A stretch of 64,000 nucleotides of DNA from an uncultured Spirochaetota bacterium (GCA_963835575.1 CAWIGG010000002.1:160001-224000); one strand, 5' to 3'. Shown: positions 33,020 to 64,000, counted from the first letter of the stretch. Translations and numbers: made by a program. The notes: generated by a model not told the origin, from the sequence alone.

Positions 33020-35677
33020 ATGAAGAAAATCTTCGGTTTAAAGAGATTAATCGCTCTTTTGACCATTGTAACGGCGGGCATTGTTCTGTCTTTACTGATC
33101 GTTTCATGCTCGACGACGTTAAGTTCTGGCGGTAATAATGGTTTTACAAGCCAGAATACAGAAACAAAGGCTGGAGGCTATAACTACGGCGAAGCCATCC
33201 AGAAAGCCATTATGTTCTACGAGTTTCAGCGCTCCGGAAAAATTGCCGCGGCTGATACAAACGGCCGTATGAACTGGCGCGGAAGTAGCGATATCAATGA
33301 CGGCTCTGATAACGGCATTGACCTGACCGGAGGCTGGCATGACGCGGGAGACCATGTCAAGTTTAACCTGCCCATGGCTTATTCGATATCCATGCTCTCC
33401 TGGGCTATTTATGAATACGGTGCGGCCCTTCAGTCCAGCGGCCAGTACGGCTACCTGACAAACAACATCAAGTGGGCTACGGATTATCTATTGAAATGCA
33501 GCGCCGGGTCCTCATATTATTATCAGGTCGGCAGCGGCGGCAATGATCATTCATGGTGGGGCCCCTGCGAAGTAAACCCGACCGTCAGGCCTTCCTACGC
33601 TGTAACCAGCGGCGGTTCGGCTGTAGCCGGTGAAACCGCGGCAGCTTTAGCCGCTGCAGCATGGGTTTTCCAGAACGGCGGTAATACTTCCTATGCTTCC
33701 ACGCTTCTCAGCACCGCCGAATCCCTTTATACCAAAGCCGCTTCCTGGGCCAGCGATTCCGCTTACAACAGCGGAGCGGCCAGCGGTTTTTACACATCTT
33801 CCAGCTGGGCCGACGACCTTTCCTGGGCAGCCATCTGGATCTATCTGGCCGGCGGCGGCAGCAGCTATCTGACAGCCGCGCAATCATGGACCAACCAATG
33901 GCCTGTCGTTACCGGATCATCCACATGGGATTACAGATGGACACAGTGCTGGGATGACGTTCACTACGGCGCTGAACTTATGCTGGCTAAATTAACAGGC
34001 CTTGACGTTTACAGGACCGCTATCGAACAGAGCCTGCAGTTCTGGACAACCGGTTATAACGGATTAAAAGTTACCTATACACCGGGCGGACTGGCATGGC
34101 TTTCAGAATGGGGTTGTCTGCGGTATGCCGTGAGCGAATCGTTTCTCGCATTTGTTTACACCGATTGGACAAACGCCGCGACGAGTAATCTGAGCGCTTA
34201 CAAGAGCTTTGCGGAAAACCAGGTTAACTATGTTCTGGGATCCACGGGAAAAAGCTATGAAATCGGTTTCGGAAGCAGTTATCCCCAGCATCCTCATCAC
34301 AGGACTGCTGAAAGCTCCTGGGCCAATGATATGAACACGCCGTCTTACGCAAGGCATACGATTTACGGAGCGCTTGTCGGCGGTCCGGACGCAAGCGATA
34401 ATTTTACAGATGCAGTCGGTTCGTATCAATACACAGAACCGGCCTGCGATTATAACGCGGGTTTTATCGCCTCACTTTCCAGAATGTACAAAGTTTACGG
34501 CGGTACGCCGATTGCGAACTTTACAAGCGCCATAGAAGTTCCTTCCAATACCGAGTTTTTCGTGTCGACGCAGCCTAACAGCACCGGCGCCAACTATTTT
34601 GAGGTGGCTGCCTGGCTGAACAACATGTCCGGCTGGCCGGCAAGACCGGGTACGAATCTTTCGTTCCGGTATTTTATCAATACTTCTGAATTTGCGGCAA
34701 ACGGCTACAGCGATACCAATGTTGCCATCACAGTCAATTACAACCAGGGCAACGCAACGGTATCGCCCAATCTGGTAGCATGGGACGCCGCAAATCATAT
34801 CTACTATGTCAATGTAAGTTTCAACAATACGAATATCTATCCCGGCGGACAGGGCATTTACCAGATGCAGATCCAGTTCAGGGTAGCGGGTCCGCAGAAC
34901 ACCAGCTTCTGGAGCAACCAGAACAACTGGTCCTATCAGGGCGGCATGACTACCAACAGTCCCAACCAGAATGTGCCTGTGTATATGTCCGGTGTTAAGA
35001 TATACGGTAATGAACCCGGAACATCCACTTCATCTTCTTCTGTTGCATCTTCAGTTGCAGTAAGTTCAAGCCTGGCCGCATCCAGCGTAGCGTCTTCTGT
35101 TGCGGTCAGTTCGAGCAGATCGAGTGTTGCGTCTTCGACAGCAGTAAGTTCAAGCCTGGCCGCATCCAGCGTAGCGTCTTCTGTTGCAGTTAGTTCGAGC
35201 AGATCGAGCGTAGCATCTTCAGTTGCGGTAAGCTCCAGCCGGTCGAGCGTAGCTTCTTCAGCAGCAGTCAGCTCGAGCCGGGCTGCATCCAGTGTTGCAG
35301 CTTCTAGCGTGGCTTCCAGCGTCGCAGTGTCCAGTGCGGCTTCAAGTACAGCCGGCGGATATGCTGTGAATTATACAGTCAATAATGACTGGGGTGCGGG
35401 CGCTACATGCACGGTGACCATAAAGAACAATTCCGCTACAGCCCTCAGTAGCTGGTCTCTTGTCTGGACTTTTGCAGGCAACCAGGCTATAACCCAGATA
35501 TGGAGCGCCAGTCAGACTACCAGCGGTGAAACAGTGACAGCCGTGAATTTAAGCTACAACGGTACGATCGGCGCGAATGGCGGAACGCAGAGCTTCGGCT
35601 TCAATTTGAGCTACAGCGGGTCCAATGCAAAACCGACTTCGTTCACTCTGAACGGAACGGCATGTACAACATATTAA
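33020..35677 (+). CDS. Lipoprotein endoglucanase GH9-CBM3c-linker-CBM2
   Basis: Lipobox IVSC; FYEFQRSG, DLTGGWHDAGD, HPHHR, TEPACDYNA; CBM3c SGWPAR..LSFRYF; CBM2 NDWGAG...W.L.W...QIW...SFGF. Confidence 0.95.
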   Translation: MKKIFGLKRLIALLTIVTAGIVLSLLIVSCSTTLSSGGNNGFTSQNTETKAGGYNYGEAIQKAIMFYEFQRSGKIAAADTNGRMNWRGSSDINDGSDNGIDLTGGWHDAGDHVKFNLPMAYSISMLSWAIYEYGAALQSSGQYGYLTNNIKWATDYLLKCSAGSSYYYQVGSGGNDHSWWGPCEVNPTVRPSYAVTSGGSAVAGETAAALAAAAWVFQNGGNTSYASTLLSTAESLYTKAASWASDSAYNSGAASGFYTSSSWADDLSWAAIWIYLAGGGSSYLTAAQSWTNQWPVVTGSSTWDYRWTQCWDDVHYGAELMLAKLTGLDVYRTAIEQSLQFWTTGYNGLKVTYTPGGLAWLSEWGCLRYAVSESFLAFVYTDWTNAATSNLSAYKSFAENQVNYVLGSTGKSYEIGFGSSYPQHPHHRTAESSWANDMNTPSYARHTIYGALVGGPDASDNFTDAVGSYQYTEPACDYNAGFIASLSRMYKVYGGTPIANFTSAIEVPSNTEFFVSTQPNSTGANYFEVAAWLNNMSGWPARPGTNLSFRYFINTSEFAANGYSDTNVAITVNYNQGNATVSPNLVAWDAANHIYYVNVSFNNTNIYPGGQGIYQMQIQFRVAGPQNTSFWSNQNNWSYQGGMTTNSPNQNVPVYMSGVKIYGNEPGTSTSSSSVASSVAVSSSLAASSVASSVAVSSSRSSVASSTAVSSSLAASSVASSVAVSSSRSSVASSVAVSSSRSSVASSAAVSSSRAASSVAASSVASSVAVSSAASSTAGGYAVNYTVNNDWGAGATCTVTIKNNSATALSSWSLVWTFAGNQAITQIWSASQTTSGETVTAVNLSYNGTIGANGGTQSFGFNLSYSGSNAKPTSFTLNGTACTTY

Positions 35678-35830
35678 GTGAAATTCCCGGAAATGTTTCC
35701 GGTCTCATTAGGGGATAGATAAATCTCTATAGTGAGGAAAAGTTATTAATAGATATGTCATTCAGCCCTGTCCGGACGGATGCCGCATCCCCCCGACCGC
35801 GGTATTCGGTTCCGAACAGGGCGATTTTTA
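34946..35830 (+). repeat. 885-bp direct repeat, copy 1 (linker, CBM2 and 3' UTR hairpin)
   Basis: Appears identical to 38006-38890 at an offset of 3060. Confidence 0.85.
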
Positions 35831-35916
35831 TGTAAACATTTATCTGTCGAATATTTGTTAAAACTTATTTTTGCAATATTTTGTGATGTATAAATAAATC
35901 CTCTCATTCCCATGTC

Positions 35917-36004
35917 CTGCCATTGGTCGGAAAAAATCCATACTTAAGGTATTGGTAAATCAATACTATGAGTCTTTATAGATTTTATAAAATGCTCTTA
36001 TAAT
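35917..36004 (+). promoter_or_regulatory. Cellulase promoter 2
   Basis: CTGCCATTGGTCG (35917), ATACTTAAGGTAT (35940), ATACTATGAGTCT (35963), TATAAT (35999). Confidence 0.75.
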
Positions 36005-36070: not shown

Positions 36071-38737
36071 ATGAAGAAAATCTTCGGTTTAAAGAGGTTA
36101 ATCGCTCTTTTGACCATTGTAACAGCGGGTATTGTTCTCGCAGCTTTTATCGTATCCTGTTCGCTGGTTTCCCATGAGAATTCCGGCCAGGGCTTCGATT
36201 CGAACCCTAATACTATGAAATCCGCGACGACATCAGGCGGCGGATATAACTACGGCGAAGCCATCCAGAAAGCCATTATGTTCTACGAGTTTCAGCGTTC
36301 AGGCAAGATCAACTCCGCTGATACTAACGGCCGTATGAACTGGCGCGGAGACAGCGATCTTAATGACGGCTCCGACAACGGTATAGACCTGACCGGCGGC
36401 TGGCATGACGCCGGCGATAATGTCAAGTTCAACCTGCCCATGTCCTACTCCGTATCCATGCTCTCCTGGGCCATCTACGAATACGGGGCCGCGATTCAAT
36501 CAAGCGGCCAGTACGGCTATCTGACGAACAATATCAAGTGGGCGACCGATTATCTATTGAAATGCAGCGCCGGGTCCTCATATTATTACCAGGTCGGCAG
36601 CGGCGCCAACGACCATTCATGGTGGGGACCTTGCGAAGTTAACCCAACGGTAAGGCCTTCATACTCATTGAGTAGCGGCGGTTCGGCAGTGGCCGGTGAA
36701 ACCGCGGCCGCTTTAGCCGCCGCAGCATGGGTTTTCCAGAACGGCGGAAATACTTCTTATGCTTCCACTCTGCTCACGCGCGCTGAATCCTTATATGCTT
36801 CAGCCGCTTCCTGGGCAAGCGATTCCGCATATAACTCCGGCGCCGCAAACGGTTATTATGGTTCCTCATGCTGGGCCGACGACCTTTCCTGGGCCGCAAT
36901 CTGGATCTACATTGCGGGCGGCGGAAGTTCTTACCTGACAGCCGCACAAACATGGACTAACCAATGGCCTGTCGTTACCGGATCATCCACATGGGATTAC
37001 AGGTGGACACAGTGCTGGGATGACGTTCACTACGGCGCTGAACTTATGCTGGCTAAATTAACAGGCCTTGACGTTTATAGGACCGCTATCGAACAGAGCC
37101 TGCAGTTCTGGACAACCGGTTATAACGGATTAAAAGTTACCTATACACCGGGCGGACTGGCATGGCTTTCACAATGGGGCTGTCTGCGGTATGCCATGAG
37201 CGAAGCGTTTCTCGCATTTGTCTACTGCGATTGGACAAACGCCGCAACGAGCAATCTGAGCGCTTACAAGAGCTTTGCTGAATCCCAGGTCAACTATGTT
37301 CTGGGCGCCACGGGCAGGAGCTTTGAAATCGGTTTCGGAACAAATTATCCCCTGCATCCGCACCACAGGACCGCGCAGGGTTCCTGGGCCGGCGATATGA
37401 ACATCCCGTCCTACTCAAGACATGTCCTTTACGGAGCGCTTAGCGGTGGTCCCGACTCAAGCGATGCTTTTACAGATGCTGTCGGTTCATATCAATGCAC
37501 CGAACCTGCCTGCGATTACAACGCGGGTTTTATCGCCTCACTTTCCAGAATGTACAAAGTTTACGGCGGTACGCCGATTGCGAACTTTACAAGCGCCATA
37601 GAAGTTCCTTCCAATACCGAGATTTTTGCATCCTCAATGTCGTACTATATGGGAACCGGCACTTATCAGGTAGTGGCGTTTATGAATAATATGTCGGGCT
37701 GGCCGGCAAGACCGGGCACCAATCTCTCTTTCAGGTGGTTTATCAATACATCATCGCTTGTCTCAGCCGGTTATTCCGATACGAATGTCACCGTACAGGT
37801 GAACGGAGGTGCGGGAAAGGTATCGCCGAATTTGATTGCATGGAACGCGGCCAGTCATATTTACTATGTTAATGTCGACTTCAGCGGCACAAACATCTGT
37901 CCTGCCGGGAATAATGTTTATCAGCTTCAGGCCAGCTTCCAGCTGAACGGCCCTTCAGGATCTACAGCATATAATTACAGCAATGACTGGTCTTACCTGG
38001 GAGGTATGACTACCAACAGTCCCAACCAGAATGTGCCTGTGTATATGTCCGGTGTTAAGATATACGGTAATGAACCCGGAACATCCACTTCATCTTCTTC
38101 TGTTGCATCTTCAGTTGCAGTAAGTTCAAGCCTGGCCGCATCCAGCGTAGCGTCTTCTGTTGCGGTCAGTTCGAGCAGATCGAGTGTTGCGTCTTCGACA
38201 GCAGTAAGTTCAAGCCTGGCCGCATCCAGCGTAGCGTCTTCTGTTGCAGTTAGTTCGAGCAGATCGAGCGTAGCATCTTCAGTTGCGGTAAGCTCCAGCC
38301 GGTCGAGCGTAGCTTCTTCAGCAGCAGTCAGCTCGAGCCGGGCTGCATCCAGTGTTGCAGCTTCTAGCGTGGCTTCCAGCGTCGCAGTGTCCAGTGCGGC
38401 TTCAAGTACAGCCGGCGGATATGCTGTGAATTATACAGTCAATAATGACTGGGGTGCGGGCGCTACATGCACGGTGACCATAAAGAACAATTCCGCTACA
38501 GCCCTCAGTAGCTGGTCTCTTGTCTGGACTTTTGCAGGCAACCAGGCTATAACCCAGATATGGAGCGCCAGTCAGACTACCAGCGGTGAAACAGTGACAG
38601 CCGTGAATTTAAGCTACAACGGTACGATCGGCGCGAATGGCGGAACGCAGAGCTTCGGCTTCAATTTGAGCTACAGCGGGTCCAATGCAAAACCGACTTC
38701 GTTCACTCTGAACGGAACGGCATGTACAACATATTAA
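36071..38737 (+). CDS. Lipoprotein endoglucanase GH9-CBM3c-linker-CBM2, close paralog of 33020
   Basis: Same motifs; DAGD and TEPACDYNA catalytic residues intact. Confidence 0.95.
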   Translation: MKKIFGLKRLIALLTIVTAGIVLAAFIVSCSLVSHENSGQGFDSNPNTMKSATTSGGGYNYGEAIQKAIMFYEFQRSGKINSADTNGRMNWRGDSDLNDGSDNGIDLTGGWHDAGDNVKFNLPMSYSVSMLSWAIYEYGAAIQSSGQYGYLTNNIKWATDYLLKCSAGSSYYYQVGSGANDHSWWGPCEVNPTVRPSYSLSSGGSAVAGETAAALAAAAWVFQNGGNTSYASTLLTRAESLYASAASWASDSAYNSGAANGYYGSSCWADDLSWAAIWIYIAGGGSSYLTAAQTWTNQWPVVTGSSTWDYRWTQCWDDVHYGAELMLAKLTGLDVYRTAIEQSLQFWTTGYNGLKVTYTPGGLAWLSQWGCLRYAMSEAFLAFVYCDWTNAATSNLSAYKSFAESQVNYVLGATGRSFEIGFGTNYPLHPHHRTAQGSWAGDMNIPSYSRHVLYGALSGGPDSSDAFTDAVGSYQCTEPACDYNAGFIASLSRMYKVYGGTPIANFTSAIEVPSNTEIFASSMSYYMGTGTYQVVAFMNNMSGWPARPGTNLSFRWFINTSSLVSAGYSDTNVTVQVNGGAGKVSPNLIAWNAASHIYYVNVDFSGTNICPAGNNVYQLQASFQLNGPSGSTAYNYSNDWSYLGGMTTNSPNQNVPVYMSGVKIYGNEPGTSTSSSSVASSVAVSSSLAASSVASSVAVSSSRSSVASSTAVSSSLAASSVASSVAVSSSRSSVASSVAVSSSRSSVASSAAVSSSRAASSVAASSVASSVAVSSAASSTAGGYAVNYTVNNDWGAGATCTVTIKNNSATALSSWSLVWTFAGNQAITQIWSASQTTSGETVTAVNLSYNGTIGANGGTQSFGFNLSYSGSNAKPTSFTLNGTACTTY

Positions 38738-39263: not shown

Positions 39264-41783
39264 ATGAAGAAAATCTTTGGTTTAAAGAGAATAATCGCTC
39301 TTTTAACCTTGATGACGGCGGGCATCGTTATTTCTTTGTTTATCGCTTCATGCTCTACGTCGATTAATTCTGGCGGTAATAATGGTTTTACAGACCAGAA
39401 TTCTCAAACTAAGGCAGGAGGCTATAACTACGGTGAAGCCCTCCAGAAGGCCATTATGTTCTACGAGTTCCAGAGGTCTGGAACAATCCCTTCAGATCAG
39501 AGAGACAACTGGAGAGGGAACTCCGGTATGAGCGACGCAGTCCTCGGCGGTTACTATGACGCCGGCGACCATGTCAAATTCAACCTTCCCATGGCCTTTT
39601 CAGCCAGTATGATGGCCTGGTCTCTCTATGAAAACGCTTCGGCTTATACGGCCACTGGTCAGACCGCTTATATTCAGAAAGCGATCCAGTGGGTTTGCGA
39701 CTACCTTGTCGGATGCCAGAGCGGAAACATCTATCAGATCGGCGACGGCAGTCTGGACCATGCCTGGTGGGGTCCCTGCGAAGTCATGCAGATGTCAAGA
39801 CCTGCGGCATCATCGGCTCAATGTTCTGCCGTATGGGGAGAAAGCGCCGCCGCTCTTGCCGCCGCTTCCAAAGTGCTCGGCAATTCTTCCTACCTGTCGG
39901 CTGCGAAGACCTATTTCAGCAAGGCTGAAAGTGCTATGAGCGATTCCGGTTATACCGCCGCTAACGGTTATTACAATTCCTGGAGCGGTTTCTATGATGA
40001 ACTGGTCTGGGCGGCAGTATGGCTCTATATTGCCTCCGGTGACAGCACATATTTAACGAAAGCTCAAACCTATTTTGGAAATATCGGGATGGAAGGACAG
40101 TCTTCCAACGTTGCTTACAAATGGACACAATCTTGGGACGACAAGCATTACGGCGCAGAGCTTTTGCTTGCCAAGTTAACAGGCGGCGCCCAATATAAAA
40201 CAGCCATTGAAAACAACCTGGACTACTGGACCACAGGCGGTCCTGACGGCTCCAAGATTACTTATACTCCCAAGGGTCTGGCCCATCTGGATAACTGGGG
40301 ATGTATCAGGTACGCTATGGGCGCTTCAACTCTAGCTTTTTGCTATGCCAACTGGTCCGGCGCGAATGCCACAAAAGCCGCCACTTACAAGTCTTTTGCT
40401 GAAACGCAGGTCAATTATGCTCTCGGCAGCACAGGCAGAAGCTATATAATCGGTTTCGGAAGCAATTATCCCCAGCATCCGCACCACAGAACGGCTGAAA
40501 GCTCATGGGCAGACAGCCAGACAGTACCGCCCTATTGCCGTCATACACTTATCGGCGCATTGGTCGGCGGTCCTGACGCAAGCGACAATTTTACCGACGA
40601 TGACAGCCAGTATCAATACACTGAACCGGCCTGCGACTATAACGCATGCTTGATCGGCGCACTGGCATATATGTATAATTCCTACGGCGGTACACCGGTA
40701 GCCAACTTGACGGCTAATGAAACTCCTTCCAACCTGGAATATTTTGTTCAGACTGCGCAAAATGCCACAGGAAATAACTTCTTTGAAGTCAAGTTTGATT
40801 TGTTCAACGAGTCAGGGTGGCCGGCAAGGGCGCTTTCAAACTCTGTGTCATTCCGCTACTTTTTTGATATTTCCGAACTTGTTGCAAAAGGGCATACCGC
40901 TAGTGATATTACCCTTACCGTCAATTACAATCAGGACAGCGCGGGTGTAGCCACACTGAAGCAGTGGAGCGGGAATATCTATTATATCAATGTCAACTGG
41001 ACCGGATTGATCTATCCCGGCGGACAGTCGATGTACAAGAAAGAAATTCAGGTCAGGTTTACTTATCCGACAGACGTGACAAACGATAACTCCAATGACT
41101 GGTCCTACCAGTATTTTAACAATGTAGTTACAACCGGAACAACAAATAACCCCAATGTGCCTGTATACATCAATGGGACGAAAGTTTATGGTAATGAACC
41201 CGGCGCAGCTTCTTCTTCAGCTGCTTCATCTGTAGCCGCGAGTTCACGTCCAGCATCCTCAGTAGCAGCATCCTCAATAGCAGCAAGCTCAGTGGCAGCA
41301 TCTTCATCATTGGCCGCATCATCCATAGCTGCTAGTTCACGGTCGAGCGTAGCATCCTCAGTAGCAGTCAGCTCGAGCCGGTCCAGTGTTGCGTCTTCAG
41401 TAGCAGTTTCCAGCGTTGCATCTTCAGTTGCTGTTTCCAGCGCAGCTTCTTCAGTCAGCGGCGGATATGCGGTTAATTACACCGTCAATAATGACTGGGG
41501 CGCGGGCGCTACATGCACGGTGACCATTAAGAACAATTCCGCTACAGCCCTCAGCAGCTGGTCTCTTGTCTGGACTTTTGCAGGCAACCAGGCGATCACG
41601 CAGATCTGGAGCGCAACGCAGACTTCCAGCGGTGAAACGGTGACTGTCAATAACCTGAGCTACAATAATGTCATCGGCGCGAACGGCGGAACGCAGAGCT
41701 TCGGCTTCAATTTGAGCTACAGCGGATCCAATGCAAAACCGACTTCGTTCACTTTGAACGGAACGGCATGTACACTTTACTAA
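39264..41783 (+). CDS. Lipoprotein endoglucanase GH9-CBM3c-linker-CBM2
   Basis: Lipobox IASC; GGYYDAGDHVKF, HPHHR, TEPACDYNA, ESGWPAR, C-terminal CBM2. Confidence 0.95.
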   Translation: MKKIFGLKRIIALLTLMTAGIVISLFIASCSTSINSGGNNGFTDQNSQTKAGGYNYGEALQKAIMFYEFQRSGTIPSDQRDNWRGNSGMSDAVLGGYYDAGDHVKFNLPMAFSASMMAWSLYENASAYTATGQTAYIQKAIQWVCDYLVGCQSGNIYQIGDGSLDHAWWGPCEVMQMSRPAASSAQCSAVWGESAAALAAASKVLGNSSYLSAAKTYFSKAESAMSDSGYTAANGYYNSWSGFYDELVWAAVWLYIASGDSTYLTKAQTYFGNIGMEGQSSNVAYKWTQSWDDKHYGAELLLAKLTGGAQYKTAIENNLDYWTTGGPDGSKITYTPKGLAHLDNWGCIRYAMGASTLAFCYANWSGANATKAATYKSFAETQVNYALGSTGRSYIIGFGSNYPQHPHHRTAESSWADSQTVPPYCRHTLIGALVGGPDASDNFTDDDSQYQYTEPACDYNACLIGALAYMYNSYGGTPVANLTANETPSNLEYFVQTAQNATGNNFFEVKFDLFNESGWPARALSNSVSFRYFFDISELVAKGHTASDITLTVNYNQDSAGVATLKQWSGNIYYINVNWTGLIYPGGQSMYKKEIQVRFTYPTDVTNDNSNDWSYQYFNNVVTTGTTNNPNVPVYINGTKVYGNEPGAASSSAASSVAASSRPASSVAASSIAASSVAASSSLAASSIAASSRSSVASSVAVSSSRSSVASSVAVSSVASSVAVSSAASSVSGGYAVNYTVNNDWGAGATCTVTIKNNSATALSSWSLVWTFAGNQAITQIWSATQTSSGETVTVNNLSYNNVIGANGGTQSFGFNLSYSGSNAKPTSFTLNGTACTLY

Positions 41784-41894: not shown

Positions 41895-43736
41895 ATGATA
41901 AAGAGAAACAAAGTGAAACTAATTTTATTAGGTTTAGGTGCAATGTTTTTTGTTCTCCAGTTTTCTACCTGCTCATTACAGTCTAATCAGGAAACTGGAC
42001 AGCAAAACAATACGACGGCTGTCAATACACAGAAAGCCACGGTTTCCAGCGTCGGGCGTCTGACAGGCGTCAACTGGTTCGGATTTGAAACCGGAAACTT
42101 CTGTCCCCATGGTCTCTGGTCCAGAGACTATAAATCCATGTTGAAGCAGATCAAAGACCTCGGTTTTAACTGTATTCGTATGCCCTGGTGCAACGATATG
42201 CTGTCGGCAACTCCCAACAGCATACAGATCAACGCTTCAGGCGTGGACGCGTACACAGGTCAGACCGGCCTGAACATGGACCTGGCCGGACTTTCTTCAA
42301 TCCAGGTAATGGACAAGGTAATCGATGAGGCAACCAGGGTCGACGGTATAAAGATCATCCTGGACAACCATTCAAAGACACATGACAACTATAATAATGA
42401 AACATTATGGTACACATCATCCTGTTCGGAAAGCCAGGGTATTTCGGATTGGCTTACTCTAATCAACCGTTATAAGAATAACGCGTATGTTTGCGGGGCC
42501 GATCTGAAGAACAAGCCTCATGGCAATATGACTACAGGTATGAGACCGCCTGCGACCTGGGGTTATGATGAACCCGGTCAGGGAACGACAGACTGGAAAG
42601 CGGCCGCCGAAAGGATCGGTACCGCCATCCTTAACGCCAATCCCAATATGATCATCATCGTGGAAGGCGTGGAATGCTATTACAATTATCCTACGGATAC
42701 TGTTACCAACTTCTTCTGGTGGGGCGGCGAATTATCAGGTGTTGCAGACCATCCTATCACTGCTATTCCTTCTGCCCAGCTGATGTATTCTGTTCATGAG
42801 TACGGTCCCGAAGTCTATAATCAGTCCTGGTTCCAGGATTCCACATTCCCGAACAATATGCCTGCCATCTGGGACAAACATTACTATTTTATTAAAAAGA
42901 ATGGCATAGGCTCTCTGTTCTTCGGTGAATTCGGCATAACGGAATCCGCAGTAGAAGCCGGCGGAGTGGCAGCCACATGGTATAAGAACTTTATGGCATA
43001 TATCGGAACCGCCAACAGCTGGACATTCTGGTGCATCAACCCGGATTCCGGCGACACCGGCGGTATATTACAGAACAACTGGGTTACTGTAGAGCCGTCT
43101 AAATACGCGGTTTTGAAACCCTATCTGGCCGCTCAATTCTCGCCTCTCGGCGGAGCAAGTTCATCTTCATCCTCTACTGTATCTTCAGTTGCTGCGAGTT
43201 CGAGCCGGGCAGCATCCTCAGTGGCAGTCAGTTCGAGCAGATCGAGCGCAGCTTCTTCAGTCGCTGCAAGCTCCAGCCGGGCCGCATCCAGCGTTGCTTC
43301 ATCTATAGCCGCTAGTTCACGGTCCAGTGTTGCTTCTTCTGCAGCGGTTAGTTCGAGCCGGTCGAGCGCCGCATCCAGCGCCGCGGCTTCCAGTACTGCC
43401 GCTTCATCAGGCGGCGGATATGCTGTTAATTATACGGTTAATAATGACTGGGGCGCAGGCGCCACATGCACGGTGACCGTTAAGAACAACAGCGCTACGG
43501 CTGTAAATGGATGGTCCTTAGTATGGACTTACGCTGGCAATCAGACGCTGACGCAGATTTGGAACGCCACATATACCGCAAGCGGAGAGACCATTACCGT
43601 CACAAACGCAAGCTTTAACAATGTCATAAGCGTAAACGGCGGGACGCAGAGCTTCGGCTTCAATCTGAGCTACAGCGGGTCCAATGCAAAACCGGCTTCG
43701 TTCACTTTGAACGGAACGGCTTGCACAACATACTAA
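41895..43736 (+). CDS. Lipoprotein GH5 (GH5_1-like endoglucanase fold)-linker-CBM2; acid/base Glu replaced by Lys
   Basis: GVNWFGFET, HGLW, LDNH, DLKNKPH (canonical NEPH), WWGG, VHEYG, GEFG, NPDSGDTGG. Confidence 0.9.
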   Translation: MIKRNKVKLILLGLGAMFFVLQFSTCSLQSNQETGQQNNTTAVNTQKATVSSVGRLTGVNWFGFETGNFCPHGLWSRDYKSMLKQIKDLGFNCIRMPWCNDMLSATPNSIQINASGVDAYTGQTGLNMDLAGLSSIQVMDKVIDEATRVDGIKIILDNHSKTHDNYNNETLWYTSSCSESQGISDWLTLINRYKNNAYVCGADLKNKPHGNMTTGMRPPATWGYDEPGQGTTDWKAAAERIGTAILNANPNMIIIVEGVECYYNYPTDTVTNFFWWGGELSGVADHPITAIPSAQLMYSVHEYGPEVYNQSWFQDSTFPNNMPAIWDKHYYFIKKNGIGSLFFGEFGITESAVEAGGVAATWYKNFMAYIGTANSWTFWCINPDSGDTGGILQNNWVTVEPSKYAVLKPYLAAQFSPLGGASSSSSSTVSSVAASSSRAASSVAVSSSRSSAASSVAASSSRAASSVASSIAASSRSSVASSAAVSSSRSSAASSAAASSTAASSGGGYAVNYTVNNDWGAGATCTVTVKNNSATAVNGWSLVWTYAGNQTLTQIWNATYTASGETITVTNASFNNVISVNGGTQSFGFNLSYSGSNAKPASFTLNGTACTTY

Positions 43737-45990: not shown

Positions 45991-46104
45991 AAAATGTTGA
46001 GAGCGGCCCTGATATTTAGGAATGAATAAGATAGTTAAAAATCCTCCCTCATTTATTTGAGGGAGGAACGCTTTTATCTTAAGAAAATTTTTGAGGAGAG
46101 TTTT

Positions 46105-50417: not shown

Positions 50418-50447
50418 ATGATAATTTTATAAAGTAAGAGAAAATCC

Positions 50448-56014: not shown

Positions 56015-57985
56015 GTGAAAAATTCAAAATTCGCTTTGCTTTCAGGATTGATGCTATTGGTACTTCCATTATGTTTGACATGCAGCCTGAATATGTCAGG
56101 TAACAATGACAAAGGCGCCATTTCTGAAACAAGCGTGAAAAAAGCGACCACAGGTTTCTCCATCAGCGGCAGGAATCTGATTGACGCCAATGGCAATCAG
56201 TTCATTTTAAGAGGTATTGCCCATGCGCATGTCTGGTATGAGAGCCAGATTACCAATGCTTTGAGCGGCATCAAAAGCGTGGGTGCCAACTGCGTCAGGA
56301 TTGTCCTGGGCTGCGGAGTCCAGTGGGGCCCGAATACAGCCGCCGATGTGTCCAATGTGATCGCATTATGCAAGGCAAACAGGCTGATCGGAATACTCGA
56401 AGTGCATGATACCACCGGTTACGGGGATGCCTCAGCGGCATGCAGCCTGGCCACGGCGGTGACATACTGGCAGTCGATCAAGAGCGTCCTGGACGGACAG
56501 GAAAAATACATCATTATCAATATCGGGAATGAGCCGTACGGCAACAACAATGTCGCCAACTGGGTCGCTGATACGGAGAACGCTATTAAATCGATGAGAA
56601 GCGCCGGGTTCCAGCATACGCTGATGGTAGATGCTCCAAATTGGGGGCAGGATTACTCTTTTATGATGCTGACCAATGCCACAGCGGTGTTTAATTCCGA
56701 TGTGAACAAGAATACGATTCTCTCGGTACATATGTATGAAGTTTATCAAACCATCACACCCATTACAAATTATATAACTCAATTTATGGCCTTGAATCTT
56801 CCCCTTGTGATCGGCGAGTTTGGATGTTCAAATAACGGGCAATATGTGGATGCGGCCGATGTCATGGCGACAGCACAGTCGCAGGGAATCGGCTACATGG
56901 CCTGGTCCTGGTGTGGGAACAGCTCCCCAGTTCTGGATATGGTCGTTAATTGGGATGCCAGCCAGTTGACGAGCTGGGGAAATATGGCGATTAACGGTGC
57001 CAACGGCATTAAAGCCACTGCTAAAGAATGCACGGTATTCAGCGGTGTATCATCCAGTTCGGTTTCCAGTATTTCGTCCGCCGTGAGCTCCAGCCGCTCG
57101 AGTGTCGCATCTTCAGTGGCTGTGAGTTCGAGCCTGTCCAGTATTGCTTCTTCAGTTGCTGTCAGCTCCAGCCAGGCGAGCAGTATAGCCAGTTCCGCTT
57201 CATCCTCAGTCCAGTATCAGAATATTACTCTTCCGTTCAGCTTTGACGGCGCGGGAGAATTATACTGGCAGACAAGCGGTACGATCACCAGCATGAATTC
57301 CTGGAATCTTGATGCGCTGGATGTGAATGGGACAAGCTTTAAAAATGTGTATGTCGCCGGAAGCAGCCTGCCCGCGAAACAGAATGGATACTACTACATT
57401 CACTATAAGGGGTCATATTCCTATAGTCATGTTGAAATTGCCGGCACATCAGGATCGGTGAGCAGCAGTTCGATAGCTGTCAGTTCCAGCCCGGCAAGCA
57501 GTGTCGCTTCTTCAATAGCGGCAAGCTCCAGCCGTGCAGCCTCTTCAATAGCAGCTAGCTCTAGCAGATCGAGTATTGCATCTTCAGTAGCAGTCAGCTC
57601 AAGCCTGGCCGCATCCAGTGTCGCTTCCAGTGCGGCATCGAGCACGGCTTCCAGCACAAGCGGCGGGTATGCAGTGAATTATACCGTCAATAATGACTGG
57701 GGCGCGGGCGCCACAGTCACGGTAACCATAAAGAACAATTCCGCAACGGCCCTTTCGAGCTGGTCTCTTGTCTGGACATTTGCGGGCAATCAGCAGATCA
57801 CTCAGATCTGGAGCGCCACGCAGACAACCAGCGGCGCGACCGTTACTGCGAATAGTTTAACTTATAACGGCGCGATCGGCGCGAACGGCGGGACGCAGAG
57901 TTTCGGCTTCAATTTGAACTACAGCGGCTCGAACGCCAAACCGACGTCGTTTACTCTAAACGGGACGGCATGTACGCTCTATTAG
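56015..57985 (+). CDS. Lipoprotein GH5_8-like endo-mannanase-linker-CBM64-linker-CBM2
   Basis: H.H.WY, EVHDTTG, NIGNEPYG (intact), DAPNWGQD, SVHMY, IGEFG, AWSW.GN; internal LPFSFDGAGELYW...NSWNLD...YYIHYKG...HVEI. Confidence 0.92.
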   Translation: MKNSKFALLSGLMLLVLPLCLTCSLNMSGNNDKGAISETSVKKATTGFSISGRNLIDANGNQFILRGIAHAHVWYESQITNALSGIKSVGANCVRIVLGCGVQWGPNTAADVSNVIALCKANRLIGILEVHDTTGYGDASAACSLATAVTYWQSIKSVLDGQEKYIIINIGNEPYGNNNVANWVADTENAIKSMRSAGFQHTLMVDAPNWGQDYSFMMLTNATAVFNSDVNKNTILSVHMYEVYQTITPITNYITQFMALNLPLVIGEFGCSNNGQYVDAADVMATAQSQGIGYMAWSWCGNSSPVLDMVVNWDASQLTSWGNMAINGANGIKATAKECTVFSGVSSSSVSSISSAVSSSRSSVASSVAVSSSLSSIASSVAVSSSQASSIASSASSSVQYQNITLPFSFDGAGELYWQTSGTITSMNSWNLDALDVNGTSFKNVYVAGSSLPAKQNGYYYIHYKGSYSYSHVEIAGTSGSVSSSSIAVSSSPASSVASSIAASSSRAASSIAASSSRSSIASSVAVSSSLAASSVASSAASSTASSTSGGYAVNYTVNNDWGAGATVTVTIKNNSATALSSWSLVWTFAGNQQITQIWSATQTTSGATVTANSLTYNGAIGANGGTQSFGFNLNYSGSNAKPTSFTLNGTACTLY

Positions 57986-58206: not shown

Positions 58207-61200
58207 TTGGAAACTAAACAAAATCCCGGTAAAAAGGCGCTTCCCATATTGTTTACATTAGCGGGTTGTCTAATCCCTGTTTTTATTATTTTGATAGTCT
58301 ATTCTATATACCGCATTCCGGAAAAAGATAAATCCAGCATAATTCAATTGACCGGTGTCTGGAAAATTCAGGAAGGTTTAAACCCGGATTGGACCAGGCC
58401 GGGCCTGGATGATTCAGGCTGGAAAGAAATCAAATTACCCGGAAGCTTTTATAACCAGGGCTTTCATGAAAAGTACCTGACATTAAGAAAAGATTTTACT
58501 TTAAATACAAATATGGAAAACCAGGACCTGTTTTTATTCATCGGCGGCACCGGCGGTTCAATGGGTATGGTTTATATGAACGGATTTAAAATCGGCGAAA
58601 TCGGAATGATTGTGAACGGCAGAAAGACACAGGGGGCCGATGAAAAATTCGGGTTTTATATTAATAAACATAATATCTTAAACGGGGCGGCCGATGTTAA
58701 AAATACAATCAGCATTGAATTTGATACTATAACGCCGAGCTATGACGGTGTGCAGGACCCAAGGATCCTTCTGGGTACCTACAATAGTTTAAGATCATAT
58801 TATGAGAAAAATATTTCGGCAAGTTTGTTTTTTCAATACGGGATCATATTTACCGGCATATTTGCCCTGATCATTTTATTTTTACTTTTGATGACTGAAT
58901 GGGGATCACCCAACCGCAATAAATATGTTTCTACCATATTCTTTGTGTTTTCGGCAATTTTATATAATTTATTTTTTACGAATGTTTTTGTCAGATATGT
59001 TTTTGATACAATATTACTATCCAAATTATTAATTTTATCGATTGTTTTTTTATGCCCGGCAACCCTGGATTATGTCCAGTATTTCTTTACCAATAAGACG
59101 AATATATTGTCAAAAATAAACAGAGTGGTTTGTTTGCTTGTTGTTGTAATGGTTTTTGCCATTCAGGATTTTGTCATAGTCAAATTGATCCATGGCTATT
59201 TTATCATGTACTTTTTTGTTGTAATTGTATATATATGTGCCTTTTGTGTGGCCCATACTCTTAAAGCCCGGGAAAAGTACAATGCCGTTGTTATTACTGT
59301 TTCGATTATAATCGGCGCGGTTTCAGGTATTTCCGACCTGTTGACCAACTTGGGATTGATTCATATGCCGCTTTTATTCAGCATTACCATTTCCATTTTT
59401 ATTGTGATGAGCGCCATGGTGATTATCGCTGATTTTATAAAGATCAGCGATTATAATAAAACACTTTCTCTGGAATTGAGCCAGTTGAACGTGAACCTTG
59501 AAGCCAAGGTTTCTGAAAGGACAAAGGAATTGAGCCAGGCCAATGAAAAACTGAAGAAGCTGGATACTGTTAAAAACGATTTTATTGCCAATATTACCCA
59601 CGATTTCCGGTCTCCTCTCACAGTCATACTGAATACGGCGGATTTAAACTTAAAAGAACACAAAGACAATCCTTATAAAAGTGAATTTGAAATGATACTG
59701 TCTTCTTCCTACCGCATGAAAAATTATATTGACCGGCTTCTGGATTTAGCGAAGATGGATGCGGGGGCCATAAAACTAAAAATCAGAAAAACAGATATTG
59801 TACAATTTTTAGAAACAATCGCAAGTTATTATCAATCGGCGATAATAAATACCAACATCAAAATTATAACCAGTTTTCCTGAAATTCCGGTGGAAAATTT
59901 TTATACTGACGAGGAAAAATTGGATGAGGTAATCAGCAATATCCTGTCCAATGCGATCAAATATGTCAGTATTGAAAACGGGATTATAGAAATTGAGGTG
60001 AGAGATGAACCGGATACGGTCCTGATTATTATATCAGACAATGGCATAGGAATACCTGAAGATAAACTGGAATTTATTTTTGAGAGGTTTGAACAGCTGG
60101 AAAGCGGGAGAAATACAAAATTCAGCGGGAGCGGGATCGGTCTTGCTTTTGCAAAACAGCTGGTGGAATTTATGAAAGGAAAAATATGGGCGGAATCGGG
60201 AGGTGAAAATAAGGGCTCCAGATTTATGATCAGGCTGCCGAGAGGCAAAGCCGCTTTTGATGATCAAGAAATTTCAACCGAATCAATGAAAGCGACATCC
60301 TTATCCCGTTTCAAGAAATTGGTAGAGTATGATATCGGTAGAAAAATTCAAAAAGAAGAACTGGAATTTTATATCAAGGAAAGAAATAAAGAAAACGAAT
60401 TTGTCCTCAAAAAAAGCGTGATATTAATAATTGACGATGAAAAATCAATCGCCGGAATCGTGATGAACTATCTTCTAATCAATGGATTTGAAAACTTTAT
60501 TATCGCTAATAACGGTAAAACCGGCCTGAAAGCCGTGTATCAATACACGCCGGATGTCATATTGTGCGATTATAACATGCCCGGGGCTCACGGGCAGTGA
60601 AGTTCATGACGCGATAGTTGATAACCCGAAATACAATCAAATTCCATTTATATTTTTGTCCGCTGTGGCGGATAGAAATTTAATTATTGAACGCAGGGAA
60701 AAAGGGGCAAATGCTTATTTAAAGAAACCGATAGATGAAAATGATCTTGTGCTGACGGTAAATCTTCATCTGAAAAAATATTTTGAATATTTAAAAACCC
60801 TGGAGCTTGCGGCCATAGATGAACTAACAGGATTATACAACAGGCGGGAAATCATCAAGCGGCTGCATGAAGAGCTGGCTGTCAGAAAATTTATGGAATT
60901 ATCGCTTATATTTTTTGATGTAGACCATTTTAAAGAAATAAACGACCGGTACGGCCATCCCATCGGCGATCGGGTTTTAAGAACTATAGGAAGAATCATA
61001 AAAGGAAACCTCAGGCCCTATGATATATCGGCAAGATATGGAGGAGATGAGTTTCTGATAATCCTGCCTCAAACAAATTCGGAAAATGCCGTTCGGGTAG
61101 CGGAAATATTAAAAAAGAGTTTCGCCGAAGAAAAAATCCTTCAAAGTGAGAATGTTCTTGCTATTACCTGCAGTTTCGGTATTTCATCACTGATCGGCAA

Positions 61201-61501
61201 CCAGAAAGACCTTGAAAAAGAACTGCATTTGAAGGATTTAAAAAAGATTTATGAGATAAAAGATTCCGCGAAAGCAGATTGGAAAATGATTCGGGAGACA
61301 AAAGAAAAGATTGCCGAAGTTCTAATAAGTTTTGCCGACAAAGCGCTTTATCAATCAAAAAAAACGGTGTGCGAAGACTGCGGATATTATTCTGAAAAAG
61401 AAGAAGATTTTCATAATAACAAATGCCCGAAATGCGGAAGTAAAAAACTGTCCGGCAGGAATAAAGTCAGTCTGTATTCGCATGATGAAAGCGCTGGTTA
61501 A
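58207..61501 (+). pseudogene. Hybrid sensor (extracytoplasmic sugar-binding-like domain, multi-TM, HisKA, HATPase, REC, GGDEF) split by a +1 frameshift; may be a sequencing error
   Basis: L.G.WK...DDSGW..I.LP, THDFRSPL, N/G1/F/G2 boxes, IIDDE, DYNMP; deleting one G of GGGG (60583-60586) gives MPGLTGSEVHD and joins the 60554-61501 ORF with IPFIFLSA, KKP, DELTGLYNRR, GGDEF. Confidence 0.85.
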
Positions 61502-61584
61502 AATGTAATATAAGCGACTTTTGATAAAAGAACAAATCAAAACGGACGTTCGATTTTCAAACAGCATACATAGGAAGTTGAATC

Positions 61585-61619
61585 ATCCTCCCTCCGTAAT
61601 CCGGAGGGGGGATTTTTTT
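61585..61619 (+). terminator. Intrinsic terminator; target of the group IIC intron
   Basis: ATCCTCCCTCCG...CGGAGGGGGGAT followed by T7. Confidence 0.8.
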
Positions 61620-61622
61620 GTT

Positions 61623-62500
61623 GTGCGCCCGGCAGGGCGCACGTTCTTGCGGGTGAAAGTCCCGTATGCACCCGGTAAGGGGAATCCCTCACCAGTTTGT
61701 GAACTTCTCCGGGCAGCCGGACAAACTGGTGAGGGACAGACGGCAAGGGTGTCCGCCGTGAGGCGGAATCTGAAGGAAGCTGCAGGCAAAGCACTGGTCT
61801 GACGAACAGAAACCGCATAGAGGCGGCACTGCTGGGTGAGACGGCAATTATCGTTAAAGCCCGATACTTACACAGAAAGCAATGGCGTAGATGCGGCAGA
61901 CATAAGTGTGAAGGAACGAGCGCATTACCCGGGGAGGTCTGACAGCCTGCCACATATTGGCTATTGTCATCGAAAGGTGATAAGAGGGGTTTTCAGAAGT
62001 CAGCAGAAGCCATAGTAACCTCTTGACCGGAGGCGAAGGGCAGAACCAAACTATAGGAGTACCGCTATGAATCCTGACACGGTAACTTACGCAGAAGCGG
62101 AAGGAAACTTTCCGGCTTTGACAAAGGATAGGGACGGAATTCCGAAGAATAGCCAAAGCGCGTGTATCCGTGCAGAGAGTCAAAGAAGGAGTACACCGGA
62201 TGAAACAAATTTAATAGAGCGTCTGGTCAAACGCGAGAACATGCTGGAAGCTTATCACAGGGTGGTAAGCAATAAGGGGGCGGCGGGAGTTGACGGAGTC
62301 ACTGTAAAACAGCTAAAAGGCTTCATCAACAAACATATGAACATCGCCTTTCCTAAGAAATTATTCGACAGTATGGGACTCGTATCGATGCTGAACAAGA
62401 TTTGTATTTATCAGAAATTATATTTTGGAACCGCCGTATACGGAACCGTACGTACGGTGGTGTGAGAGGTCGGCGGGTGTAAACCCGCCTCCTACTCAAT
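61623..62500 (+). mobile_element. Group II intron, class C, with internally deleted RT ORF (878 nt)
   Basis: 5' GTGCGCCCGGCA; GGGTGAAAGTCCC in domain I; domain V GAACCGCCGTATACGGAACCGTACGTACGGTGGTGTGAGAGG; domain VI ending CTACTCAAT; inserted just after a terminator. Confidence 0.92.
62067..62465 (+). pseudogene. Remnant of group II intron reverse transcriptase/maturase
   Basis: RT0 segment ENMLEAYHRVVSNKGAAGVDG joined directly to a maturase-like C-terminus MNIAFPKKLFDSMGLVS; no YADD. Confidence 0.85.
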
Positions 62501-62584: not shown

Positions 62585-62650
62585 ATACCCAAAGTACTGT
62601 CAAATCCATACTCAAGGTTTGCCCTGTTTTAAAAAGCGGTTATTTATAAT
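62585..62650 (+). promoter_or_regulatory. Cellulase promoter 5
   Basis: ATACCCAAAGTAC (62585), ATACTCAAGGTTT (62608), TATAAT (62645). Confidence 0.75.
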
Positions 62651-62694
62651 ATTAACCTATATATAATGTGGAATAATATAAATTAGGAGGAAAT

Positions 62695-64000
62695 ATGAAA
62701 ACTATGAAGAGAAGTTTGCCATTATTATCATTACTGGTAGTTGTGTTCTTCTTTTTAATTTCGGCTTCCTGCTCCTTGTCATTTAAAAATGATAATAATT
62801 CAGGCGGTTCTTCCGGATTGAACTCCAATCCGTTAAAAGCTACATCTTTTAATTATACCGACGCTTTCGCCAAATCAATCCTGTTTTATGAGGCCAACTG
62901 GTGCGGGCCTGACGCCGGTTCAAACCGCCTTCCATGGAGAGGTCCCTGCCACACGAGCGACGGCGCGGATGTCGGGCTTGATCTCACAGGCGGTTTTCAT
63001 GACTGCGGCGACCACGTCAAGTTCGGCCAGACCCAGGCTTACGCCGCGTCCACGCTGGGCTGGGCATATTATGAATTCAAGGATGTGTTCGTTTCCAAGG
63101 GCCAGGACGTTTATATGCTTAAGATCCTGAAGCATTTTACGGACTATTTCCTTAAGAGCTTTCCGAACGCGAACACGTTTTATTATGAGTGCGGAGACGG
63201 AACGACAGACCACGCTTACTGGGGCCCGCCCGAATTACAAACGACTGCTATTACAACGCGTCCCACTCTTTATGTCGCTAATCCGACAACGCCGGGTTCC
63301 GATGTCTGCGGCGATACGGCTGCCGCTCTCGCTTTGATGTACTTGAACTATCTGGACAAAGATTCGTCTTACGCGAACAAATGCCTCACTGCCGCGAAAA
63401 GCCTTTACACGCTGGGCAAAACCTATTTAGGCCTCAGCCAGGCCGGCGGATTTTACGCCCCAAGCGGCTACTGGGATGAACTGAGCTGGGGAGCCGTCTG
63501 GCTCTATCTGGCGACAACAAACACCAGTTATTTGAACGATGTGTTGACTTTCATGTCAAATAAGAATATTACCGATTCCAATCCCTATAACAATCATTGG
63601 ACGCATTGCTGGGACGATGTCTGGGGAGGAGTATTCGTTAAAATGGCGCAGATCACAAACAGGCCGCTCTTTAAATCAGTTGCGGAAGAAAATTTGAGCT
63701 ACTGGATGACCGGCCTTACCAGAACGCCCGGCGGGCTCTGCTACCTGAACTCCTGGGGCAACTGCCGGTATGTCGCGGCCGAATGTATGCTGGCCCTTGT
63801 TTATAACAAAACGGCAACCAACCAGGCATACGCCGATTTCGCTAAATCACAGATCGACTATATTCTGGGCAATAACCCGCATAGTTATTCCTATGAAATC
63901 GGGTTCGGGACAAGCTATCCGAAGTTTCCTCACCACCGCGCGGCCAGCGGGCGTTTTGAGCATCAGCCTGCCAATGAGTCCAAGGATGATCCGGAAAGGC
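62695..64000 (+). CDS. Lipoprotein GH9 (second subtype), 3' end outside the window
   Basis: AGGAGG then MKTMKRSLPLL...ISASCSL...PLKATSFNYTDAFAKSILFYEANWCG...GGFHDCGDHVKF...PHHR; paralog of 50564 and 53405. Confidence 0.92.
   Translation, partial: MKTMKRSLPLLSLLVVVFFFLISASCSLSFKNDNNSGGSSGLNSNPLKATSFNYTDAFAKSILFYEANWCGPDAGSNRLPWRGPCHTSDGADVGLDLTGGFHDCGDHVKFGQTQAYAASTLGWAYYEFKDVFVSKGQDVYMLKILKHFTDYFLKSFPNANTFYYECGDGTTDHAYWGPPELQTTAITTRPTLYVANPTTPGSDVCGDTAAALALMYLNYLDKDSSYANKCLTAAKSLYTLGKTYLGLSQAGGFYAPSGYWDELSWGAVWLYLATTNTSYLNDVLTFMSNKNITDSNPYNNHWTHCWDDVWGGVFVKMAQITNRPLFKSVAEENLSYWMTGLTRTPGGLCYLNSWGNCRYVAAECMLALVYNKTATNQAYADFAKSQIDYILGNNPHSYSYEIGFGTSYPKFPHHRAASGRFEHQPANESKDDPER

Follow-up and report, generated by a model that had tools for sequence, protein, structure and literature searches.

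A co-oriented array of CBM2-tailed, lipoprotein-type hydrolases with a candidate protease release site in an uncultured spirochaete

How Gram-negative anaerobes that lack a cellulosome, a polysaccharide utilization locus (PUL), or conventional secretion get their cellulases onto the fibre is an open question. Here, we report the analysis of a 64,000-nucleotide (nt) stretch of DNA from an uncultured Spirochaetota bacterium (GCA_963835575.1, CAWIGG010000002.1:160001-224000; the window), in which glycoside hydrolase (GH) genes lie in a co-oriented array and share one chassis, made up of a lipobox signal, a short tether, a catalytic domain, a serine-rich linker, and a C-terminal family 2 carbohydrate-binding module (CBM2). 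The tether ends in a conserved Lys/Arg-Ala (K/R-A) site that looks like a protease release site, and the locus gives the question a specific, testable answer, namely lipoprotein export followed by cleavage at a single conserved basic residue.

The window is G000:C2:160001-224000 of the source genome (G000; 4.39 Mb, 7 contigs, 94% complete), a G000:C2 coordinate being the window position plus 160000; positions above 64000 are counted on past the window. The source is a spirochaete by the marker FlaA (4 matches in G000 versus none in 14 controls), as the first-pass annotation of the window had proposed. Its order is probably Brevinematales, placed by best match and not by a tree, with the closest CBM64 modules among named records carrying Brevinematales titles (L074-L076 at 65 to 74%; also L078, L082-L085, and L089).

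The first-pass annotation had listed 11 co-oriented GH genes (6 GH9, 3 GH5, GH116, and GH12), each starting at a lipobox Cys. All 11 were found in place, with a hydrophobic signal ending in Cys (pattern-based call). Pfam confirmed the catalytic domain in 9 of the 10 genes that are complete in the window; the gene at 44170 had no catalytic Pfam match and matched GH5 mannanase structures (E value, 4e-47). The window-truncated gene at 62695, scanned at full length, was also GH9 by Pfam. CBM3 was matched in 5 of the 6 window GH9 genes, and every gene in the array has one catalytic domain. The annotated minimum of 11 genes grew to a CBM2-ending run of 19 co-oriented genes over ~50 kb (window 33020 to 83351, plus strand), broken at 58207-62500 and composed of 6 GH9, 7 GH5-type, 2 GH10, GH8, GH12, GH116, and one unassigned GH with CBM6. 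A CBM2 search of G000 brought the genome total to 25 CBM2-tailed hydrolases and one 20-residue CBM2 relic; those outside the run are 2 GH9 genes ~19 kb further on and, elsewhere, GH48, GH5, GH27, and a GH30-type xylanase. The first reading had also missed the internal CBM64 in 56015, the interruption itself, an N-K-P motif in 41895 and 44170, and the K/R-A site. The array genes are as follows.

33020..35677, plus strand: GH9a; lipobox C30, tether, K50-A (nt 33167), GH9-CBM3, Ser/Ala/Val/Arg linker, CBM2
36071..38737, plus strand: GH9b; lipobox C30, K50-S-A (nt 36218), GH9 89% identical to GH9a, linker, CBM2
39264..41783, plus strand: GH9c; lipobox C30, K50-A (nt 39411), GH9-CBM3-linker-CBM2
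41895..43736, plus strand: GH5a, endoglucanase-type GH5; lipobox C26, K47-A (nt 42033), linker, CBM2; N-K-P at nt 42513-42515
44170..45990, plus strand: GH5b, mannanase-type GH5; lipobox C20, K42-A (nt 44293), linker, CBM2; Lys at nt 44863-44865
46057..48921, plus strand: GH116; probable start ATG 46105, lipobox, K-A (nt 46216), GH116, linker, CBM2
49035..50312, plus strand: GH12; lipobox C20, K41-A (nt 49155), linker, CBM2
50564..53161, plus strand: GH9d; lipobox C27, K49-A (nt 50708), GH9-CBM3-linker-CBM2
53405..55966, plus strand: GH9e; lipobox C22, R41-A (nt 53525), GH9-CBM3-linker-CBM2
56015..57985, plus strand: GH5c, mannanase-type; lipobox C23, K43-A (nt 56141), GH5, linker, CBM64 (amino acids [aa] 401-475), linker, CBM2
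62695..64000, plus strand: GH9f; lipobox C26, K48-A (nt 62836), GH9-CBM3-linker-CBM2; runs beyond the window end to 65322
65365-83351, plus strand, beyond the window: eight CBM2-ending genes (3 GH5, GH5-like with CBM64, 2 GH10, unassigned GH with CBM6, GH8)

Three of the GH5-type enzymes are nearest to mannanases, so the target is the plant cell wall and not cellulose alone; with mannanase-, xylanase-, galactosidase-, and glucosidase-type enzymes in the system, its earlier description as cellulolytic was too narrow. Its description as a non-cellulosomal system on one chassis held. No match in G000 was found for cohesin (PF00963; control positive in 2 of 14), for dockerin (PF00404) or SLH (PF00395; controls positive for both), or for SusD (PF07980; control positive). 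The two TonB-dependent receptors of G000 lie far from the array. GH48, also reported as missing, is absent from the window and present in the genome; GH6 gave no match in G000, but its control was silent as well, so this is no sign of absence.

Lipoproteins were called with our own pattern-based caller, which returned 225 candidates (23 chassis proteins and 202 others) in 3,766 open reading frames (ORFs). A lipobox was called in 23 of 25 chassis genes, the exceptions being GH48 and a GH10 with its lipobox in another frame (frameshift); counting the frameshifted GH10, a lipoprotein signal is present in 24 of 25. The start at the lipid-Cys, C-S-[LVI], is conserved (Ser in 20 of 24). The tether behind it is 17 to 27 residues long and unconserved (cross-family identity, 11.0% versus 10.2% when shuffled; 212 pairs), and it ends in Lys/Arg plus a small residue at the first folded residue. 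Of the chassis proteins, 21 of 23 had K/R-A at +14 to +34 from the lipid-Cys, against 25 of the 202 remaining predicted lipoproteins (Fisher p, 7e-15, which is overstated because the 23 chassis proteins are partly paralogues); shuffled tethers gave a mean of 2.1 and a maximum of 8 of 23 in 5000 rounds. In the narrower interval of +18 to +28, the counts were 21 of 23 versus 15 of 202. The two chassis proteins without K/R-A have K-S-A and R-M-A, and a Lys or Arg falls within +18 to +28 in all 24 tabulated proteins (the 23 chassis proteins and a GH5-CBM3). At the site itself (n = 24), P1 is Arg in 13 proteins and Lys in the remaining 11; Ala occupies P1' in 22, and Thr occupies P2 in 11.

The K/R-A site spans nine enzyme classes of unrelated folds. 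Three of the 25 other K/R-A lipoproteins are CBM3-bearing enzymes outside the CBM2 set, and when 21 large lipoproteins were hand-picked from the 202 for Pfam, the 8 that proved to be GHs without a cellulose-type CBM had no K/R-A (0 of 8). GH9d was modelled with AlphaFold (54 sequences; mean predicted local distance difference test [pLDDT], 87); residues 29 to 49 of the model have a pLDDT below 50, and confidence rises directly after K49. A cut after K49 would give a start of A-T-S-F-N-Y; Bacillota homologues begin with A-T-S-[FY]-N-Y, apparently produced by signal peptidase I (SPI). The site is unlikely to be a leftover of the donors' SPI site: within the 10 residues that precede the domain, K/R-A was found in only 8 of 112 GH9 homologues of the SPI type. 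A role as a domain-packing element was ruled out because the site precedes unrelated folds. Elsewhere in the genome, a GH5-linker-CBM3 lipoprotein with a K-A tether has an in-frame TGA (L193:2842-4605; G000:C2:1805842-1807605), with a GT-C/PMT-like gene just upstream.

As annotated, CBM2 finishes in C-[TS]-[TLV]-Y in all 10 complete window genes; "near-identical" was too strong, protein identity across the 25 copies being 69 to 100% (median, 81%) and third-codon identity 52% at the median, with mosaic blocks by eye. Low third-codon and high protein identity argue for old copies under selection with recombination, and not for a collapsed repeat, GH9a/GH9b (~885 nt identical around the 3' end) being the exception. 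As a special C-terminal signal, C-[TS]-[TLV]-Y was ruled out; it is the normal CBM2 end, common to PDB 3ndy and SPI-type Bacillota enzymes. Modules of the CBM2a type (crystalline cellulose) have a planar aromatic triad and a Gly after the first Trp. W11, W48, and D-W-G-[AT]-G occur in 25 of 25 copies, with Tyr/Phe at the third position (aligned with Tyr in 3ndy and Trp in 1exg), and by these residues the copies are predicted to be CBM2a.

CBM64 is internal in three genes of G000, each with CBM2 after it, and is the terminal module in four kin (G001, G007, G010, and G011), where the design is lipobox, tether, GH, Ser-rich linker, and CBM64 end, with the genes single or paired at the loci inspected. 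We infer that CBM2 was appended to, or swapped for, a CBM64 tail such as the kin have and then spread, and that the array grew by duplication and by CBM swapping via the repetitive linker. A relic chassis gene (L008; G000:C2:328250-328760, minus strand) consists of a lipobox signal and GH5 start, deletion-fused to the last 20 CBM2 residues. Two lipoproteins of ~1,100 aa have near-identical N-termini (L003:9989-13345, with LamG, beside the GH9g/h pair, and G000:C3:281977-285291). A metagenome scan for similar arrays gave 9 loci, and those with recognisable enzyme genes were SPI-type by eye. Chloroflexi records (L096, L104, L107, L113, L115, and L117) contain tandem secreted-enzyme arrays, all CBM64-ended, with no lipoboxes among the matches listed.

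The GH48 is the chassis member set apart. It is a GH48-linker-CBM2 protein of 833 aa (G000:C2:770883-773384; Pfam E value, 2e-181; GH48 structures to E value 7e-165), the only GH48 in the genome, ~530 kb from the array; its acid and base motifs are intact, and its signal peptide lacks a lipobox. Its gene sits in the middle of a cluster encoding a secretin, GspE/PilB, GspF/PilC, PilN/PilO-like proteins, three pilin-like proteins, and a prepilin peptidase. This is the only secretin and the only such ATPase in G000; no second ATPase/PilT paralogue was found at an E value of 1e-8. A 2,824-aa Ig-repeat protein is encoded in front of the cluster (L054; G000:C2:750822-776348). Secretin was matched in 0 of 4 other same-genus genomes and 0 of 3 genus-g4 genomes, which are incomplete and include all four kin seen with lipoprotein cellulases; as far as such genomes show, the lipoprotein cellulases of the family therefore need no secretin.

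Candidates for the cut are three lipoproteins of the clostripain family (C11), which have His-Gly and Asp-Ala-Cys motifs; the genes of two lie 5 to 14 kb ahead of the window. Published C11 proteases cleave after TR/TK (passages of PMC11169675) and prefer Arg/Lys at P1 (passages of PMC10315481). Gingipain (C25) gave no match in G000, but its control was silent as well, so this too is no sign of absence; trypsin-fold proteins gave 2 matches. Three further loci are recorded here: a cellulose-directed papain-family protease fused to CBM3 (L240; G000:C2:1906591-1908234), whose lipobox is atypical and whose propeptide junction reads T-R-A; a run of ~10 lipoprotein genes, all in one orientation, immediately preceding the window (L124; G000:C2:141000-160000), including two C11, a CBM4-subtilase, and several Gly/Ser-tethered paralogues that look beta-helical; and a lipoprotein with a thiol-activated cytolysin domain (L138; G000:C5:379612-381144), possibly like the antibacterial CDCL proteins of Bacteroidota.

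The linkers are 44 to 60% Ser, with Ala/Val/Arg repeats, and the gene 739 nt past the last array GH encodes a family 39 glycosyltransferase (GT39; PMT and PMT_4TMC domains) beside a GT87-like neighbour.

84091-85869 (G000:C2:244091-245869), minus strand: GT39 O-mannosyltransferase
85866-87443, minus strand: GT87-like glycosyltransferase

Every one of the 12 family genomes has a PMT_4TMC gene, G000 alone having two, and none of 29 genomes from the rest of the order and class has one. The array GT39 shares 24% identity with the family-wide copy; among named records, its nearest homologues are mostly Bacillota GT39 (43 to 46%); a plasmid search with it gave distant matches (24 to 30% in the best 10 of 12 records). 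We liken it, at the level of the family, to Cbes_1864, the GT39 of the Caldicellulosiruptor bescii locus, whose deletion removes glycosylation and raises CelA cleavage (passages of PMC6151902).

We lean, somewhat more than evenly, to an "anchor, export, shed" scheme built on these sequence features, in which lipidation would serve as the export route, cleavage would shed free CBM2 enzymes, and O-glycans would protect the linkers. The enzymes would be carried over the outer membrane along the path of spirochaetal surface lipoproteins, with no secretin needed. A surface Lys/Arg-specific protease, for which the three C11 lipoproteins are the best candidates, would cut K/R|A and free the catalytic domain, linker, and CBM2 onto the fibre, probably leaving a mix of anchored and free enzyme. 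The GT39 would O-glycosylate the Ser-rich linkers and shield their Arg sites; the soluble GH48 would leave via a type II secretion system (T2SS)-like machine and give exo-activity to the GH9-CBM3 endoglucanases; and the products would be taken up and cleaved by phosphorolysis (GH94, with 4 matches in G000). More tentatively, at a little under even chances, the surface-lipoprotein pathway might be read as secretin-free secretion for a whole free-cellulase arsenal, with a lipid ticket, a K/R|A tear-off site cut by a surface C11 protease, an O-mannosylated linker, and a tunable switch between carpet and cloud, which G000 would have amplified to 19 genes while adding a Bacillota-type GT39 and a GH48 that leaves via a separate secretin.

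Several observations weigh against shedding at K/R-A. Within G000, K-S stands at a similar place in 2 of 3 CBM-less GH8 lipoproteins, 12 of 24 tethers contain another Lys/Arg, and R-A occurs in 13 of 25 linkers (R-S in most others), so that in unprotected linkers a simple trypsin-like cut would sever the CBM too. C11 is present in 9 of 12 family genomes, whether or not these have cellulases, and G001, the closest relative with a CBM2 enzyme, has only a weak C11 match. The two lipoprotein cellulases of G001 have no K/R-A (one has R-N and one has none), and inspection by eye gave 4 lipoproteins in the set of 117 GH9 homologues outside G000, 2 of these 4 having K/R-A at the same place. For GH5 homologues with lipoprotein calls, exact K/R-A was found in 4 of 16 CBM-bearing and 4 of 33 CBM-less proteins (p, 0.41). 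The secretin cluster scores under the NCBIfam cutoff for both T2SS and type IV pilus models, and a second GT39 deletion in C. bescii had no dramatic effect (passages of PMC7142884). Finally, the GH48 signal peptide also ends in T-R-A, and SPI might read the site instead. Such a variant, in which SPI would cut after the Ala and release the enzyme as well, fits badly with K-S-A, R-M-A, and the kin tethers PKV and PRV, given the -3/-1 rule of SPI.

A relaxed motif gave a different picture. The tethers in family members include TKA, TKA, AKA, and NKA besides TKG, PKV, PRV, and TKP, and Lys/Arg followed by Ala/Ser/Gly/Val was found in 10 of 16 CBM-bearing versus 9 of 33 CBM-less GH5 homologues (p, 0.03); dropping by eye the calls that were SPI-like with a stray Cys (6 of 16 and 2 of 33) changed this to 10 of 10 versus 8 of 31. 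From the GH5 and family counts, a basic residue near the junction is therefore widespread in CBM-bearing lipoprotein enzymes, and strict K/R-A is a trait of G000 and its family.

The first-pass annotation had proposed that each enzyme could bridge the cell membrane and the fibre. The chassis it drew on, with a lipobox at one end and CBM2 at the other, stands; the bridge is challenged by a conserved K/R-A at the boundary of tether and catalytic domain. We consider it rather unlikely, though the most serious rival, that the enzymes form a permanent surface carpet, lipid-anchored in the outer membrane with CBM2 gluing the cell to cellulose and K/R-A acting as a sorting or folding cue or a remnant. 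The lipoprotein signal in 24 of 25 genes, the conserved C-S-[LVI] start, and the long linkers that put CBM2 far from the anchor would all suit a carpet, as would the lack of K/R-A in both G001 enzymes and in 2 of the 4 GH9 lipoprotein homologues. Lipid-anchored carbohydrate-active enzymes have been proposed as a Gram-negative stand-in for the cellulosome (passages of PMC2386152 and PMC2699552), and in Borrelia, tethers direct surface localisation, and hold that information, without a conserved sequence (passages of PMC2987989). Against a carpet, a boundary site of Lys/Arg and a small residue that is missing in 177 of 202 other lipoproteins and in 8 of 8 CBM-less GHs has no obvious role in anchoring, and the GH48 partner, predicted to be soluble, would work on fibre at a distance from the cell.

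Delivery by outer-membrane vesicles, or to the periplasmic face, with K/R-A an uncut exporter recognition or modification site, seems improbable. CBM2, CBM3, and CBM64 bind insoluble cellulose, which cannot reach the periplasm, and the equal use of Lys and Arg speaks against an amide linkage or a lysine modification, whereas the absence of a secretin match in kin with such enzymes is compatible with this route. Least probable is a reading with no special mechanism, in which part of the array is due to an assembly artefact or to a duplication in decay. This reading would explain the ~885 identical nt of GH9a/GH9b, the two GH5 genes with Glu-to-Lys changes described below, the GH10 frameshift, the in-frame TGA of the GH5-CBM3 gene, and the deleted relic copy, and of 10 proteins queried against the collection, 7 were found, in the G000 assembly alone. 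Set against this are the diverged third codons of CBM2 beside a conserved protein (medians of 52% and 81%), catalytic motifs intact in most members, and the occurrence of the lipobox-tether-GH-Ser linker-CBM design in independent genomes.

The Glu-to-Lys changes affect two adjacent genes. GH5a and GH5b have Lys for the acid/base Glu (N-K-P for N-E-P); each fits one G-to-A change and has an unaltered paralogue further along the array. Among the 120 rows of the GH5a homologue set, 109 have Glu at this position, 1 (the query) has Lys, and 10 gave no pattern match. A systematic G-to-A assembly error was unsupported, with 0 Glu-to-Lys in 25 G000-only changes over ~3,800 aligned columns around rpoBC (a comparison set that takes in 4 antisense ORFs), and the k-mer context of the N-K-P sites showed no depletion.

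The remaining features of the window lie upstream of the array or interrupt it.

30155..32662, plus strand: regulator upstream of the array, LacI-type sugar sensor/PAS/LuxR-HTH (Pfam, NCBIfam)
32843..32993, plus strand: ~150-nt conserved upstream element, repeated at 35892-36042 and 39090-39240 (repeat family D11, 74 to 79% identity)
58207..61501, plus strand: interruption; 7TM sensor kinase-REC and REC-GGDEF, apparently one gene, with a 1-nt frameshift near 60580 (Pfam)
61752..62500, plus strand: interruption; group II intron remnant, D1-D4 and 3' domains, with a 132-aa ORF without Pfam match (Rfam)

The ~150-nt element before GH9a, GH9b, and GH9c is a probable shared promoter region. The regulator may be tied to the array by its position; it has >20 paralogues in G000, several near GH genes. 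A homologue adjoins the two enzymes of G001 in the opposite arrangement and, given the >20 paralogues, was not used as evidence. A promoter and terminator scan gave little beyond a few hairpins (terminators, 20 versus 20 expected). A small CBM4 lipoprotein without catalytic domain is encoded two genes upstream of the array (29221-29928), and the 5' part of the sensor kinase gene is AT-rich. Two group II intron remnants, neither with an intact reverse transcriptase (61752-62500 and L003:6329-7077) each lie just upstream of a chassis GH9 (GH9f and GH9h).

GH9 was found in 8 of 11 other family genomes and in none of the 29 genomes searched from the rest of the order and class, GH48 in 0 of 11 other family members, and CBM2 in 1 of 40 relatives, with one gene there. 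The locus thus points to an overlooked spirochaete family as plant-fibre degraders. In the open-access literature, nothing was found on Brevinematales cellulolysis or on protease release of lipoprotein cellulases, and passages of a phylum-wide preprint (10.1101/2025.07.04.663154) do not cover Brevinematales cellulolysis. Each part of the system has a precedent; their combination and scale are without precedent in the literature searched. If the reading is true, this would be the first described Brevinematales degrader of crystalline cellulose, as far as that search reaches; if the enzymes stay anchored, it would still be an extreme case, with 24 of 25 CBM2 enzymes predicted to be lipidated.

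CBM64 offers one comparison, the G000 modules matching structures 5e9p and 5e9o. Spirochaeta thermophila was reportedly described by Angelov and colleagues in 2011 as having a non-cellulosomal system in which several GH families share a C-terminal CBM64. It resembles G000 in being a spirochaete with several GH families on one conserved C-terminal cellulose-binding module, and CBM64 occurs in G000 too; G000 differs in its order, its terminal CBM2, its arrayed genes, and the presence of GH48.

Lipid-anchored carbohydrate-active enzymes have precedents in Saccharophagus degradans and Teredinibacter turnerae. Both are Gram-negative and non-cellulosomal, with lipobox enzymes and serine-rich GH-CBM linkers; in S. 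degradans, 31 of 34 lipobox genes encode carbohydrases, 15% of such ORFs (PMC2386152), and T. turnerae has 23 lipoprotein carbohydrases (PMC2699552). In contrast to the ~15% of carbohydrate ORFs in S. degradans, lipoproteins make up 24 of 25 chassis enzymes in G000, where they are arrayed, and the linkers are 44 to 60% Ser against ~80% in the polyserine linkers of the two species (80 to 83% in PMC2699552). The passages of PMC2386152 and PMC2699552 describe no candidate release site. For such release, parallels come from elsewhere. Porphyromonas gingivalis Mfa pilin precursors are lipoproteins cut after Arg by RgpA/B and released (passages of PMC5789003), the Caulobacter lipoprotein precursor ElpS is released by cleavage (abstract of PMC2996285), and substrates of the Bacteroidales C11 proteases fragipain/DpnB (passages of PMC11169675) likewise have a lipid-Cys, a short extension, and an Arg/Lys cleavage that frees the protein, as is proposed for G000. 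Those substrates are pilins, antibacterial pore formers, and a phosphate-scavenging protein, whereas in G000 it would be a cellulase arsenal.

The closest overall likeness is to the glucan degradation locus (GDL) of Caldicellulosiruptor, although the G000 locus is not itself a GDL; we read the system as a GDL-like array with which a free-living spirochaete would digest cellulose, mannan, and xylan with no need of a cellulosome. Passages of PMC6151902 and PMC7142884 describe a co-oriented run of modular GH genes with repeated CBMs, low-complexity linkers, and no scaffoldin, which grew by duplication and recombination (PMC7142884), and which has the same GH9-CBM3 and GH48 chemistry and, as its locus GT39, a protein that carries a CBM-like loop near the N terminus. 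G000 differs in being a diderm spirochaete, with 19 single-catalytic enzymes instead of multi-catalytic GH-CBM3-GH proteins, CBM2 instead of CBM3 repeats, Ser/Ala/Val/Arg instead of Thr/Pro linkers, lipoprotein signals with a K/R-A tether, and a GH48 outside the locus in the secretin cluster. The two loci show convergence on a design in which an array of modular hydrolases is joined by a GT39.

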